Shown piece by piece: positions 19,853 through 53,618 of a DNA stretch of 64,000 nt. Both the position numbers and the translations under genes were made by a program. Position 1 is the stretch's first letter. Every line of letters starts with the position of its first letter. Source of the stretch: Alphaproteobacteria bacterium (lineage in GTDB: Bacteria > Pseudomonadota > Alphaproteobacteria > Rs-D84); NCBI GenBank assembly GCA_017616785.1, contig JAFZXK010000022.1:58516-122515 (forward strand). Reading direction: 5' to 3'. The notes beneath the pieces are model-generated. The model had not been told where the DNA came from and did not search any database. It saw only the letters and a list, made by a program, of their open reading frames with translations.

Positions 19853-19880
19853 GATAGTGTAAGTGATTAGTTGTAGGTGT

Positions 19881-19903: not shown

Positions 19904-20020
19904 GCGACACCCCGCCCTGCGGGCACCCCTCTAGCCAGAGGGGAATTTTTTTATGTTCTGTTGCGGGCCAAAATTCCCCTCTGGCTAGAGGGGTGGCGGG
20001 TGGAACCCGCCGGGGTGTCG
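19904..20020. repeat. Full-length A-type MITE-like palindromic element (117 bp)
   Basis: Left arm GCGACACCCCGCCCTGCGGGCACCCCTCTAGCCAGAGGGGAA, centre GTTCTGTTGCGG, right arm the inverted copy ending CCGGGGTGTCG. Confidence 0.8.
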
Positions 20021-20034
20021 ATAAAACTTTTATC

Positions 20035-20063
20035 TTGCACAGAGTATGTTTTTATGATACAAT
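20035..20063 (+). promoter_or_regulatory. Sigma70-type promoter of cassette 1 (-35 TTGCAC, 17 nt, TGa-TACAAT)
   Basis: The hexamers are seen directly. An almost identical promoter sits at 53383-53411 upstream of the twin cassette. Confidence 0.65.
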
Positions 20064-20250
20064 ACTTATGCTGGTGGGAATTCCATTGGCGGGGTGTAAC
20101 GACCCTTAGATTCCGAGTGTCCGTGGGGACAAAAAACACCTCCAACCCAAGGTGGTTGGAGGGCGGTGAATATATCGAATAAACCCACTATTTTTCTCGG
20201 AACATAGTCGTTAACCTCCAACCACATGAAAGCAATTTCGGTGGTTTTTT
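20064..20250 (+). ncRNA. Conserved structured 5' leader of cassette 1 (candidate cis-regulatory RNA)
   Basis: Hairpins 20118-20131 and 20139-20162, the box GAATATATCGAATAA (20168-20182), a second CCTCCAACC copy at 20215 and a weak hairpin with T6 at 20220-20250. A homologous arrangement occurs at 53412-53618. Confidence 0.4.
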
Positions 20251-20418
20251 AGTTAGTGGTTAGTGTTAGTGCAAGTGGTTAGTGGGGGAAAATAATTGTC
20301 ATTGCGGCCCCCGAGCCGCAATAGGGAAGGCATGAAAGCCCTATGGCGGACCAAGCCCGCCATGACAAAAAAGAAATAATTGTCATTCTGAACTTGTTTC
20401 AGAACCGCCATGACAAAA
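20251..20418. repeat. TAGTG-rich spacer plus two TTGTCAT...ATGACAA mini-palindromic elements
   Basis: TTAGTGGTTAGTGTTAGTGCAAGTGGTTAGTG followed by two units, each starting AATAATTGTCATT and ending CGCCATGACAAAAA. Absent from the homologous leader at 53.4 kb. Confidence 0.6.
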
Positions 20419-20431
20419 AGTTTGGGAAAAA

Positions 20432-20749
20432 ATGAAGCGATATCTTTTATTATTTTTAATCCTTTTTATTCCGCAAATTGTGCATGCGGATGATGTTGGT
20501 GTTGCCGATACCGATGATATGCAACGCGCGATGCAGATTTCAAAATTGAAACGTGAAATATCCGAACTTGAAATTCAATTATCGGAATGCCAAAGAAAAA
20601 ATAAAAATTGGAAAACGGCGACCTGGATAGGTGCGGCGGGAACGGTGGCGACCGGCGCCGCGGCAATAGTGCAGGGCGTGAAACTAAATAACCTTAAAAA
20701 AGAAAAATCAAATAACAAACCAACCGGGGGGACAAAAGATGAAAAGTAA
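20432..20749 (+). CDS. Cassette protein A1: signal peptide, coiled coil, glycine-zipper segment, K-rich tail
   Basis: Very similar to the 53619-53933 product over its whole length. Signal peptide MKRYLLLFLILFIPQIVHA. 11-nt overlap with the next gene. Confidence 0.7.
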   Translation: MKRYLLLFLILFIPQIVHADDVGVADTDDMQRAMQISKLKREISELEIQLSECQRKNKNWKTATWIGAAGTVATGAAAIVQGVKLNNLKKEKSNNKPTGGTKDEK

Positions 20750-21167
20750 AATAATACTTTTGGTTGGAATGTTTGCATGCGTTTCCGCGTACGGTGAAAC
20801 GGACTATATTGATATGCAAATACATGAATTAGAACAACGTCGCGATGAATTAAAGAAGCAAATTGCGGAGTGTGAACAAAACACGCGCGGTTACAAAATT
20901 GCGGGCATTGCAACACTTGGGGCGACCGGTGTCGGTGTGGTTGGAAATATCGCACTGCATAATGAAATCAAAAAAATTGAACAATCAAAAAACGGTGGTG
21001 GGTACAGTGGGCGTGGTTCGGTCAGTAATACTGTAACTGAAGATACATGCGCATCTGACCCGATTTGTTCGTGGGAACGGCAGTGTGAAATGACGAACTA
21101 TAAAGTAAAAAATTGTGATCATGATACAGATTGTTGTGCCGCGGACGGTTGCCCATGCGAAAAGTAA
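20739..21167 (+). CDS. Cassette protein B1: A-like N-terminal part plus unique Cys-rich tail
   Basis: The first ~93 aa are near-identical to B2 (53923-54309). The last 39 aa contain 8 Cys and are unrelated to the B2 tail. Confidence 0.7.
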   Translation: MKSKIILLVGMFACVSAYGETDYIDMQIHELEQRRDELKKQIAECEQNTRGYKIAGIATLGATGVGVVGNIALHNEIKKIEQSKNGGGYSGRGSVSNTVTEDTCASDPICSWERQCEMTNYKVKNCDHDTDCCAADGCPCEK

Positions 21168-21206
21168 AGTGTTTCTATAAAAACAACAAAACCAAAAGGA
21201 GAAAAA

Positions 21207-21833
21207 ATGAAAAAAACTTTGTTGTCAGTTGTCGCCGGTTTGGCGGTTATAGGGAGTTCGTTTGCTGTTCCAAGTTTGGACAGACAACGTGAAGATTGTG
21301 AGGAAAACCCGAATTTTGTGTGGGTGGAGATGACCAAAACTTGTGTTCCTGTAAATCCGTGTAATTCAGATAATATGGAAATAAAACGTGCTTATTGTGA
21401 TGAGGTAACTTTTGCCGACATTAGTCTTAGTTATATACCTGCGTTGATGGTTATTTCAGCAAAAGAGTATGTAAGAGTTGGATTTGGTGGTGTTGATATG
21501 AAATCAGATTGGGTTTCTGAACCGAATTACATAGGTTTTTCTGATACCAACTTGGGTTCGTATATGGTTTACAAATTTGCCGATGCTAATCTTAGTAGAT
21601 CTTCTGCAACTGAATATTTAAAAGCGTATTGCAGAGCATTTGGTGGTAACGGTGAAAAATATTATAACGATAAAGGTTTTGCGGCGATTGATTGTGAAAA
21701 TCCTGTGGTTCCATATGAAGTTTTAAAAGAACTGACGATATTGGGGACGGATAAGAAGTCAGAAAATATTGTTACATTCTATTTTAGATCAAAGATGGAT
21801 TGTTATTCATATGATGATTGTATGAAAGAATAA
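21207..21833 (+). CDS. Cassette protein C1: secreted protein with Cys-rich N-terminal motif
   Basis: Signal peptide MKKTLLSVVAGLAV identical to C2. Conserved C..NP..VWVE.T..C.P.NPC.SD...I..AYC block; the remainder is strongly diverged from C2. Confidence 0.7.
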   Translation: MKKTLLSVVAGLAVIGSSFAVPSLDRQREDCEENPNFVWVEMTKTCVPVNPCNSDNMEIKRAYCDEVTFADISLSYIPALMVISAKEYVRVGFGGVDMKSDWVSEPNYIGFSDTNLGSYMVYKFADANLSRSSATEYLKAYCRAFGGNGEKYYNDKGFAAIDCENPVVPYEVLKELTILGTDKKSENIVTFYFRSKMDCYSYDDCMKE

Positions 21834-51915: not shown

Positions 51916-53166
51916 ATGAAAAGGGTTGTTATTACGGGTATGGGCATTGTGTCGCCGGTTGGTTGCGGTATTGAACATGCGTGGAAAAACATTGTGGCCG
52001 GGCGTTCCGGCGTTCGCAAGATTGAAGATTTCGATGCTTCTGAATTGGCGTGTCAAATTGCGGGCGTGCCGGTGCGTGGGAACGAACCTGGGATGTTTAA
52101 TCCGGACACTGTGGTTGAACCTCGCGACCAACGAAAGATGGATAAATGTATTTTATATGCGGTTGTTGCCGCGGACGAAGCGGTTCGCGACGCGGGCCTG
52201 GATACATATACCGGCGATAAAGACCGCGTCGGCGTTTCGATTGGCAGTGGTATCGGCGGTTTGAACACAATCTATGAAAATTGTATCGAATTGGCGAACA
52301 GTGGACCGCGCCACATCAGTCCGTTCTTTATCCCAAAGTGCATTATCAATATGGCGGCGGGTCATGTTTCGATTAAATACGGTTTGCGTGGCCCGAATGT
52401 TGCGATGGTGACGGCGTGCGCGACCGGTGCGCACAGTATCGGCGAAGGTGCGCGCCTTATTCAACATGGCGATGCGGACATTATGGTTTGTGGCGGGTCC
52501 GAAGGCGCGGTTGGTAAAATCGGTGTTGCGGGATTTTCGGCGATGAAGGCATTAAGTACGCGTAACGATGATCCGGAACATGCGTCGCGTCCGTGGGATA
52601 AAGACAGGGACGGCTTCGTTATGTCCGAAGGCGCGGGTGTTTTGGTTTTGGAAGAATATGAACATGCGGTCGCGCGTGGTGCAAAAATTTATGCCGAGGT
52701 CGCGGGTTACGGCCTGTCCGGGGACGCATATCATATAACTGCGCCGGCCGAAGGTGGCGAAGGTGGCGCGCGTGCTATGATGGCGGCGTTGAATGATGCG
52801 GGGTTAAAGCCGGCGGATGTTGACTATATCAATGCGCATGGAACGTCAACAGGTCTTGGCGATATTGGTGAATTGACGGCGGTAAAGAAATTGTTTGGTG
52901 ATACGGGTGCGTGTATGTCTTCGACCAAGTCCATGACCGGGCACTTACTGGGTGCCGCCGGCGCGGTAGAGGCGATATTCTGTACACTGGCCATTCGCGA
53001 TGGAATTGTGCCGCCGACAATCAATTTGGATAATCCGATTGATGAGGTTGGCGACTTTGATTTGGTGCCGAACAAGGCAAAGAAACGCAAGGTCGATGTC
53101 GCACTGTCCAATTCATTTGGCTTCGGCGGAACAAATGCATCATTGGTGTTAAAGAAAGTGAATTAG
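51916..53166 (+). CDS. fabF: 3-oxoacyl-ACP synthase II
   Basis: KAS II: active-site context ACATGAHSIG, HGTSTGLGD and GHLLGAAG. Confidence 0.93.
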   Translation: MKRVVITGMGIVSPVGCGIEHAWKNIVAGRSGVRKIEDFDASELACQIAGVPVRGNEPGMFNPDTVVEPRDQRKMDKCILYAVVAADEAVRDAGLDTYTGDKDRVGVSIGSGIGGLNTIYENCIELANSGPRHISPFFIPKCIINMAAGHVSIKYGLRGPNVAMVTACATGAHSIGEGARLIQHGDADIMVCGGSEGAVGKIGVAGFSAMKALSTRNDDPEHASRPWDKDRDGFVMSEGAGVLVLEEYEHAVARGAKIYAEVAGYGLSGDAYHITAPAEGGEGGARAMMAALNDAGLKPADVDYINAHGTSTGLGDIGELTAVKKLFGDTGACMSSTKSMTGHLLGAAGAVEAIFCTLAIRDGIVPPTINLDNPIDEVGDFDLVPNKAKKRKVDVALSNSFGFGGTNASLVLKKVN

Positions 53167-53220
53167 TGTAAGTGTTAGTCCCGCCTACGCCAATGGCTAC
53201 GGCGAGGCGGGGGTTAGTGA

Positions 53221-53245
53221 CGGGCGCGAACGCGCCCGTTTTTTT
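53221..53245 (+). terminator. Intrinsic terminator after fabF
   Basis: CGGGCGCGAACGCGCCCG followed by T7, preceded by a TAGTG-rich spacer. Confidence 0.8.
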
Positions 53246-53368
53246 GCGACACCCCGTCCGCTTTCGCTTCGCTACAGCGAGACACCCCTCTAGCCAGATG
53301 GGAACTTGATTCCAGAGTACGAAGTTCTCCTCTGGCCAGAGGAGTACGGCGAAGCCGGGAGGTGTCGC
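53246..53368. repeat. Full-length A-type MITE-like element (123 bp)
   Basis: GCGACACCCCGTCCGC...CCCCTCTAGCCAGATGGGAA ... CTCCTCTGGCCAGAGGAG...GGAGGTGTCGC. Confidence 0.85.
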
Positions 53369-53382
53369 ATAAAACTTTTATT

Positions 53383-53411
53383 TTGCACATAGTGTGATTT
53401 TATGATAAAAT
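53383..53411 (+). promoter_or_regulatory. Sigma70-type promoter of cassette 2 (-35 TTGCAC, 17 nt, TGa-TAAAAT)
   Basis: ATAAAACTTTTATTTTGCACATAGTGTGATTTTATGATAAAAT parallels 20021-20063. Confidence 0.65.
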
Positions 53412-53618
53412 GTGTATCGATATGGCGGGTTGCCATGTCTGGGCATAGAAACCCATTGAGAAGCGTCCTGATTTTTAGGGACGATAAAGAAAACCACCAA
53501 CCAGAGGGTTGGGGTGTTGCGAATATATTGAATAAGCAACGCAATTCTTCTCATTGTTTCTAAGCCCCAATCCACACAGTGGCGTCTGTCATCGTGTGAA
53601 CTTTGAATCGGGGAAAAA
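53412..53618 (+). ncRNA. Conserved structured 5' leader of cassette 2 (candidate cis-regulatory RNA)
   Basis: Hairpins 53464-53483 and 53497-53512 and the box GAATATATTGAATAA (53521-53535), in the same order as in cassette 1. Confidence 0.4.

Follow-up and report, generated by a model that had tools for sequence, protein, structure and literature searches.

The c4 antisense RNA of phages P1 and P7 (Rfam family RF01695) lies in an immI module with the order a1 b1 - c4 - a2 b2 - icd - ant, and terminator/antiterminator platforms are familiar from the trp and pyrBI leaders and from OFF switches of the SAM-I and TPP types. A further structured RNA, sRNA-Xcc1 (RF02221), was first cloned from Xanthomonas campestris as a stable 88-nt species (PMC2996969) and is reported upstream of symE in integron cassettes (bioRxiv 10.1101/2025.06.18.660453), upstream of an ORF6N gene in the APSE phage (bioRxiv 10.1101/2020.03.17.996009), and in Xylella islands (PMC12189769); its mechanism has stood unexplained in the literature since the 2010 description. 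We describe here a leader RNA that shares features with each of these, and that is encoded twice on the + strand of a 64,000-nt window, at 20064-20250 (locus 1) and at ~53400-53600 (locus 2); the window is the whole stretch of DNA analysed and corresponds to contig C11:58516-122515 of a 1.06-Mb alphaproteobacterial genome in 25 contigs. The leader is a real folded RNA of ~190 bases, is in no RNA catalogue, and is undescribed as far as the searched literature shows.

Like the riboswitch and attenuator platforms, the leader is promoter-proximal and has an intrinsic terminator between the promoter and the open reading frame (ORF); the 5' strand of that terminator can be claimed by an antiterminator, with which the closing helix of an upstream domain competes. 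Unlike classical attenuators it has no leader peptide, unlike riboswitches it has neither a known aptamer nor an association with metabolic genes, and unlike either it is present in 5 to 15 or more copies per 1-Mb genome and has its antiterminator partner sequestered beforehand in a local hairpin, H2. With moderate confidence, and from comparative sequence evidence, we regard the leader as a terminator/antiterminator switch that acts in cis, has its origin in a c4-like module of phages, and is placed before secreted-protein genes.

A leader family in the order Rs-D84

A preliminary description of the window had listed two hairpins (H1 and H2), an A-rich linker and a nearly invariant box in the same order at both loci, together with a weak hairpin and T-run at locus 1, and reading of the sequence found every one of these elements where it had been placed. 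Alignment of the two loci extends from the terminator of the upstream gene into the leader itself, taking in a palindromic repeat and a promoter that is almost the same at both. A two-sequence profile (nhmmer) identified 11 copies in the 1.06-Mb genome, and a covariance model built from locus 1 alone recovers all 11 at full length; locus 2 is matched full length by this locus-1 model with an E-value of ~1e-13 and 63 bits, and scores 102.6 bits with a model rebuilt from 104 copies. When the 11 genome copies are folded singly with RNAfold, all 11 adopt the same architecture, and the fold of locus 1 has a z-score of -4.4 against shuffled sequences.

Collection of leaders genome-wide and from related genomes, with covariance models built from them, recovered a family with evident covariation. 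Within the genus, 24 of 25 genomes carry the leader in 1-20 copies each (locus-1 model); across the order it is present in 175 of 201 genomes and in 17 of 23 genera, with at least 15 copies in some (rebuilt model), and weaker full-length matches to the rebuilt model occur in 12 of ~199 other alphaproteobacterial genomes. A pattern scan of named records, filtered with the locus-1 model, gave true copies in Candidatus Enterousia and in metagenome-assembled genomes of uncultured gut and rumen Alphaproteobacteria; the same scan also returned chance inverted repeats in unrelated phyla, from which the covariance model told the true leaders apart. The isolate KS320-82 is an Enterousia and belongs to order Rs-D84 (PMC12306168). 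Full-length copies were also seen on contigs from bins labelled Bacteroides fragilis and Muribaculaceae, and these are probably mis-binned alphaproteobacterial contigs rather than evidence of transfer.

No Rfam family reaches its threshold with locus 1 and nine other copies in permissive scans or with the whole window, on which only two tRNAs are found at gathering thresholds. The earlier remark that the leader is not recognisable as a known riboswitch or leader is borne out to this extent, but its 3' domain proves to be distantly related to sRNA-Xcc1, as detailed below.

Covariation of two alternative folds

Every helix of the leader is backed by compensatory changes among the 104 copies, in agreement with the proposal of a structured cis-regulatory leader. 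The hairpins and box of the original hairpin-hairpin-box description are real, but its anatomy was incomplete: the structure is a four-way junction closed by two long-range helices, and a 5' hairpin (P1), the two long-range helices (P2 and P3), a stem closing the box (P6) and a small helix (P7) had been missed (Table 1). In this arrangement, fold A, which is the predicted thermodynamic ground state, P1 would form at the 5' end and P2 and P3 would close a junction holding H1, H2, and P6 with its box.

Standard base pairs occupy 96.5% of the fold-A pair cells, a share that drops to 37-47% once the partners are shifted by 1-3 columns. Two-sided compensatory changes are found at 40 of the 44 pairs (1227 cells, versus 329 in shuffles); these counts lean towards fold A because the 104-copy alignment was fitted to a fold-A model and many of its rows are paralogues. 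P2 and H2 were already found by RNAalifold on a plain MAFFT alignment, and a structure-blind mutual-information scan also puts fold-A pairs at the top. Compensatory changes are seen at all eight pairs of P1, the loop of which is conserved. P2 has a base of GGGG(U) with (A)CCUC across the family and an upper helix that is 99.7% paired and covaries at all seven pairs, while P3 (~7 bp) has a different sequence in each copy, covaries at 7/7 pairs and is among the top mutual-information pairs. The covariation of the closing pair of H1 noted between the two loci, T-A against C-G, holds family-wide (CG in 53 and UA in 46 of 104). Cells with G.U pairs outnumber those with A.C on the + strand by 398 to 54, which points to the mRNA-sense strand as the functional one.

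The fold-A junction carries many conserved unpaired nucleotides: CC after the 5' strand of P2 (P2a), the A-rich linker, the box, and AU(A/U) before the 3' strand of P2 (P2b). Long variants of the leader contain an extra helix between the GAAUAA and AAAUAA of the box, so that the box is a near-symmetric internal loop and, in the short form, the loop of P6. A 13-codon GUG ORF (20166-20207), whose start lies 3 nt after the Shine-Dalgarno (SD)-like GGAGG within H2 and whose stop is the UAG in P7, was considered as a leader peptide and rejected: no more than 43 of 104 copies have the GUG after GGAGG, and the middle base of this codon takes part in a covarying P6 pair; the earlier impression that no ORF explains the box is thus upheld.

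The leader is positioned to begin with P1. The promoter of locus 1 also precedes locus 2 and a copy on contig C15, and transcription at locus 1 is predicted to start at ~20069-20071; given the placement of the extended -10 promoter, a start at ~20070 would coincide with the first base of P1. The leader thus begins ~50 nt upstream of H1, directly at the predicted start.

A second fold uses the same nucleotides. The 3' strand of H2, GGUUGGAGG, can pair with the second copy of CCUCCAACC that follows P2, as had been pointed out for locus 1, and this pairing covaries independently of fold A: 96.6% of cells are paired among the 104 copies, and double changes occur at six of the nine pairs, with 34 such cells against 4.8 in shuffles, in a helix that is absent from the model that produced the alignment. 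Nine base pairs of this alternative helix are conserved, but the 11-bp form is specific to locus 1; a conserved 11-bp helix or toehold was rejected, the two extra pairs being no more frequent than chance, at 52 and 18 of 104 copies (47 and 16 in shuffles). Both helices use the 3' strand of H2; the first copy, this strand and the second copy covary three ways, and natural variants alter the three strands jointly (CCUGGC/GCCAGG/CCUGGC, CCUGC./GGCAG/CCUGCC, and CAUCC/GGAUG/CAUCC). G.U wobbles are tolerated in the first CCUCCAACC, whereas the second is a perfect Watson-Crick match to GGUUGGAGG.

P7 belongs to this second arrangement, fold B, a three-way junction in which it meets the alternative helix and P6. 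The 4-bp complement needed for P7 is kept by 102 of 104 copies, whereas shuffling of the partners leaves 49.5 +/- 4.7; the forms seen are CUAU/AUAG, CAAU/AUUG, CUAC/GUAG, and CUAA/UUAG, and the helix connects the stretch of junction that follows P6 with the nucleotides immediately 5' of P2b. Since the 3' strand of P3 lies inside P7 and leaves just 0-2 nt free, P3 and P7 appear to be mutually exclusive. The alternative helix and P7 still covary within the lineage, three-strand changes included, which argues for present selection on fold B.

Fold B also takes up the AACC of a terminator 5' strand. A hairpin of the form AACC(G/A)C...G(C/U)GGUU followed by a U-run lies directly 3' of the second copy in nearly all 104 leaders (76 by a strict script, and nearly all after inspection of the remainder), which agrees with the attenuator-type terminator proposed for locus 1. 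Locus 2, already noted as having no clear terminator, does lack a U-tract, and its degenerate terminator is common to a near-identical paralogue at 39.7 kb of contig C11. The minus strand at 20139-20162, where H2 is followed by the A-rich linker in complement, is scored as a terminator of the intrinsic type and could halt antisense transcription into the leader. Comparison of the 104 copies shows both folds to be under selection and the terminator to be conserved; from the nucleotides that they share, we infer that the folds exclude one another, and termination is what the choice between them would control.

Table 1. Coordinates of leader features and adjoining elements at locus 1 and locus 2 (positions in the window).
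Feature	Positions	Strand	Details
Locus 1 promoter	20035..20063	+	-35 TTGCAC, extended -10 TGnTACAAT; consensus scan
Locus 1 P1 hairpin	20070..20090	+	GCUGGUGG / CCAUUGGC, loop GAAUU (family consensus GNRUU)
Locus 1 P2 5' strand	20091..20103	+	GGGGU base, bulged G, UAACGAC upper (variable); partner 20207-20218
Locus 1 P3 5' strand	20111..20117	+	UUCCGAG; partner 20196-20202
Locus 1 H1	20118..20131	+	TGTCC-GTGG-GGACA (RNA UGUCC-GUGG-GGACA); 96% paired across the 104 copies
Locus 1 A-rich linker	20132..20138	+	AAAAACA, conserved, unpaired (column counts)
Locus 1 H2	20139..20162	+	CCTCCAACC-CAAGGT-GGTTGGAGG; in RNA first CCUCCAACC, loop, GGUUGGAGG
Locus 1 P6 stem	20165..20185	+	GGU/ACC, closes box GAAUAUAUCGAAUAA; 3/3 pairs covary
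Locus 1 box	20168-20182	+	GAATATATCGAATAA
Locus 1 P7	20188..20207	+	CUAU (20188-20191) with AUAG (20204-20207); encloses P3 3' strand (20196-20202)
Locus 1 P2 3' strand	20207..20218	+	GUCGUUA (upper), ACCUC (base); RNAalifold, covariation
Locus 1 second copy	20215..20223	+	CCTCCAACC (RNA CCUCCAACC); fold A: CCUC to GGGG at P2 base, AACC begins terminator; fold B: all 9 nt pair with GGUUGGAGG at 20154-20162 (candidate antiterminator)
Locus 1 intrinsic terminator	20220..20250	+	AACCAC/GTGGTT hairpin and T-run; AACCAC..GAAA-GCAA-UUUC..GUGGUU, then U6; in minimum-free-energy fold
Three-gene cassette	20432..21833	+	signal-peptide proteins of 105, 142 and 208 aa
Locus 2 promoter	53382..53411	+	TTGCAC, TGnTAAAAT; consensus scan
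Locus 2 leader domain	53419..53575	+	full-length covariance-model match, single-sequence fold
Locus 2 P1	53419-53439	+	
Locus 2 P2	53441-53452 with 53556-53567	+	
Locus 2 P3	53457-53463 with 53547-53553	+	
Locus 2 H1	53464-53483	+	CGTCC..GGACG
Locus 2 H2	53497-53512	+	CCAACC-AGAG-GGTTGG
Locus 2 P6 and box	53516-53540	+	
Locus 2 box	53521-53535	+	
Locus 2 P7	53542-53545 with 53553-53556	+	
Locus 2 second copy	53565-53573	+	CCCCAAUCC; partner GGGUUGGGG at 53506-53514
Locus 2 hairpin	53574..53600	+	CACAC..GUGUG, no U-tract; degenerate terminator

Relation to sRNA-Xcc1 and its phage occurrences

Neither locus 1 nor nine copies outside the window match RF02221 at E <= 10, and the best match in the whole genome (E = 6) is at an unrelated site. 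Genomes of relatives give many full-length matches to RF02221 at 26-51 bits, below its gathering score of 53 bits, which none of 25 genomes exceeds; a large number of these matches fall on the 3'-terminal ~80 nt of leader copies, and phage controls score 71-86 bits. In the full-length alignments (positions 1-87) the closing helix of RF02221 falls on the alternative helix, its hairpin 1 (AAUA...GAAUAA) on P6 and the box, and its hairpin 2 on P7, and fold B is therefore the Xcc1 fold. The box, GAAUAUAUYGAAUAA, is aligned to the AAUACAAUA...GAAUAA of the family model, with the AAUA of the second half invariant in 95-97 of 96-97 copies. All seven of the best Xcc1-like matches inspected in relatives also have the 5' half and the terminator of the leader. 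Some relatives have leaders with a variant closing helix, GGUCGGGG/CCCCGACC; these make up a class in which this pair serves as the triple element and the 5' half is longer. Its scores with RF02221 go up to 51 bits, and the locus-1 model fails to find it.

The leader thus resembles sRNA-Xcc1 in having a three-way junction with a 9-bp G-rich closing helix (GGUUGGAGG/CCUCCAACC here, GgCcGGggG/CccCCgGcC in Xcc1), a hairpin 1 with AAUA...GAAUAA, a short hairpin 2, a linker and a CC-rich tail, and in lying directly upstream of, and co-oriented with, a gene. It differs in that an upstream arm is fused to the domain, in that an extra first CCUCCAACC, that of H2, masks the closing helix, and in that an intrinsic terminator overlaps this helix; it also scores below the family threshold in relatives, and its copies in this genome give no match.

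Four temperate phages with true sRNA-Xcc1 (Aaphi23, Acinetobacter 4316, Pasteurella Pmp3, and Moraxella Mcat15) were compared with the leader. Xcc1 lies 35-40 nt upstream of a co-oriented gene in all four; two of these genes are ant, one encodes a KilA-N domain, and one is hypothetical. Each hairpin-2 loop has a 6-8-nt complement in the ribosome-binding region of the gene that it precedes, and the loop and target sequences differ in all four (CUGUUUG/CAAACAG, CUUCGU/ACGAAG, UUUUUGG/CCAAAAA, and UUUUCUG/CAGAAAA), a complementarity that is deduced from these four members and lies outside Rfam's definition of the family. All four also have, 105-130 nt upstream, a module that consists of a complement of the Xcc1 linker, 3-5 nt, a complement of the hairpin-2 loop, and a hairpin with a U-run. 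P2 and P3 of the Enterousia leader involve the same two sites, linker and hairpin-2 loop, and the leader therefore shares with phage Xcc1 an upstream arm complementary to both. The fold-A model gives no match on the Aaphi23 locus.

These phage RNAs are like c4 in being small structured RNAs upstream of an anti-repressor gene, with specificity in short variable segments; exposed segments are complementary to an upstream copy and, in the Xcc1 elements of phages, also to a downstream copy at the translation start. The arrangement in the four phages is suggestive, without being proof, of a c4-like mechanism for the Xcc1 family. The Enterousia leader is unlike c4 in having the upstream partner only, and in that its output would be intrinsic termination rather than the translational block followed by Rho-dependent polarity of the phage system; locus 1 and nine other copies gave no match to RF01695 at E <= 10. 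It also differs from all four phage Xcc1 RNAs, as its hairpin-2 loop has no complement at the downstream ribosome-binding site. A c4-like downstream target of the variable loop or linker was accordingly rejected for Enterousia: the mean longest complementary run of the P7 loop with the downstream start region is 6.03 against 5.97 +/- 0.09 for shuffled partners, and thus not enriched, and the value for the linker, 6.58 against 6.29 in shuffles, is marginal and is not trusted. The core of the leader is a relative of the catalogued Xcc1 RNA, and by analogy the leader as a whole looks like a phage module rewired to an intrinsic terminator.

A candidate termination switch and its alternatives

We propose that in fold A the P2 helix would take the CCUC of the second CCUCCAACC and leave AACCAC free, so that the terminator could form and transcription would stop. 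In fold B, GGUUGGAGG would pair with the whole of the second CCUCCAACC and P7 would replace P3; the 3' half would then become a three-way junction of Xcc1 architecture, and the terminator, deprived of its 5' strand, would permit read-through. The 5' half (P2a, the 5' strand of P3, and the first CCUCCAACC) would act as a built-in antisense arm that unfolds the Xcc1-like domain and so permits termination. From the phage relatives and the gene content, we favour RNA-RNA pairing or a protein as the input over a metabolite.

An SD sequence and a start codon follow the leader, with a median distance of 59 nt when counted from where the second copy begins. The start codon at locus 1 is 217 nt away because repeat elements have been inserted: two tandem small repeats (AATAATTGTCATT...CCATGACAAAAA) at 20290-20425, between terminator and start codon, add ~135 nt to the 5' untranslated region and recur on contigs C2, C7, C13, C15, and C18. 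Heptamer runs resembling GTTAGTG (for example TAGTTAGTGGTTAGTGTTAGTGCAAGTGGTTAGTGGGGG) at 20251-20289, 19860-19880, and 53160-53222 flank terminators and precede ribosome-binding sites, with similar runs on many contigs, and the palindromic unit CACCCCTCTAGCCAGAGGGGAAT, of which copies are found all over the genome, forms an inverted pair at both loci (19905-20022 and 53250-53372), placed after the terminator of the upstream gene and before the leader promoter.

The three-gene cassette behind locus 1, presumably under the control of the leader, recurs behind four of the 11 leaders. Two crude rules assign N-termini like those of signal peptides to 53-73 of 93 downstream ORFs; 28 encode at least eight cysteines, and ten belong to a single ~60-aa XRE-like family. 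Members of this family (MKIGxQIEQIR...) look like minimal XRE-type helix-turn-helix regulators, recur behind leaders in different genomes, and may be part of the same circuit. Pfam matches to the downstream proteins are to scattered families only (Listeria-Bacteroides repeat, HTH_3, ABC, PAP2, and superinfection immunity), and no metabolic theme emerged from the Pfam assignments, N-termini and cysteine counts of the 93 ORFs.

Several observations weigh against the proposed switch. Fold A is more stable than fold B by ~10-13 kcal/mol in nearest-neighbour calculations, even before the 3' strand of the terminator is made; H2 forms first during transcription; and no toehold from which H2 could be invaded is conserved among the 104 copies. 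The U-tract is missing at locus 2 and at the paralogue almost identical to it, the heterogeneous downstream genes give no clue to a signal, and the pair counts, as noted, lean towards fold A. Thermodynamic bistability, or switching at equilibrium, was rejected on the energy difference. Given the greater stability of fold A, the early formation of H2 and the absence of a toehold, some factor must favour fold B or remove the arm. In tblastn searches with approximate queries, this genome, which is 94% complete, showed neither Hfq nor CsrA; it has Rho, one Csp and a single NusG, with no NusG paralogue. No free-standing arm or domain with a matching barcode is present in this genome, and no P2/P3 barcode has a second site. 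An RNA acting in trans through GGUUGGAGG was rejected, as that sequence occurs once outside the leaders, which is the chance level.

The stability of fold A might instead mean that fold B needs the arm to be removed, which would suit a locus that is mainly a small-RNA gene, with its leader role secondary. The terminated ~190-nt transcript would then be a masked precursor, from which removal of the 5' arm, for example by cleavage in the single-stranded and conserved A-rich linker, frees an Xcc1-like trans-acting RNA of ~90 nt in fold B, and expression of the downstream gene would be incidental read-through. That fold B is the fold of sRNA-Xcc1, a stable 88-nt RNA in Xanthomonas (PMC2996969), speaks for this explanation, but an SD sequence and an ORF always follow the leaders within ~60 nt, no Hfq or CsrA was found, and no trans target is visible, as the genome offers the variable loop and linker no complement beyond their own arm, and their pairing with the downstream ribosome-binding region is not enriched. 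We consider it rather unlikely.

The conserved unpaired nucleotides of the junctions, and the competition of the closing helix with an antiterminator as in classical OFF riboswitches, are also what would be expected of a metabolite or ion riboswitch, in which the fold-A junction is the aptamer and a ligand locks P2 and H2 so that the terminator forms. This is unlikely, since the downstream genes are non-metabolic, encoding signal-peptide and cysteine-rich proteins, small XRE-like regulators, and superinfection immunity; the core is common to phage anti-repressor control RNAs that would act by complementarity of loop and target, and fold A is the ground state without any ligand.

A leader that does not switch at all would account for the strong preference for fold A and for the failure to find a trigger. 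It would be a portable constitutive cassette, duplicated with its promoter before unrelated genes, that supplies a fixed partial terminator or insulator or an mRNA-stabilising 5' structure, and the second fold would reflect shared ancestry with Xcc1 rather than present function. The alternative helix and P7 keep covarying within the lineage, with three strands changing at once, and the second copy remains fully Watson-Crick complementary to GGUUGGAGG where the first allows wobbles; on these grounds we find it quite improbable. A signal at the DNA level or on the opposite strand, either an antisense terminator or a repeat with no RNA function, is very improbable indeed: H2 with TGTTTTTT did score as terminator-like on the minus strand in a consensus scan and the genome is rich in palindromic repeats, but G.U cells exceed A.C cells as given above, the long-range helices covary with a sequence that differs per copy, which a DNA repeat does not explain, and no convergent gene lies downstream on the minus strand.

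The proposed terminator/antiterminator switch can be carried one step further. Because no P2/P3 barcode has a second genome site, a processed or fold-B product could pair only with the nascent 5' arm of its own locus; such pairing would block fold A and open the terminator. That each leader is in this way an RNA feedback switch addressed to itself, with a phage immunity RNA as its domesticated ancestor, is a speculative and improbable extension. If it were true, each secreted-protein locus would be an independent heritable ON/OFF switch, resembling phase variation with no change in DNA, and sRNA-Xcc1, the function of which has been unexplained since 2010, would gain a c4-like mechanism.

We take the leader to be a new, lineage-wide form of terminator switch, the core of which is related to an RNA that is catalogued but has no explained mechanism; the switching itself is deduced from sequence comparison. 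One RNA design, in 5 to 15 or more copies per ~1-Mb genome, stands before much of the secreted and surface repertoire of Candidatus Enterousia and the wider Rs-D84 gut Alphaproteobacteria, which have tiny genomes. As proposed here, it would link the widespread and mechanistically unexplained sRNA-Xcc1 family to a concrete mechanism, and it is probably a main layer of gene control in organisms with few protein regulators.

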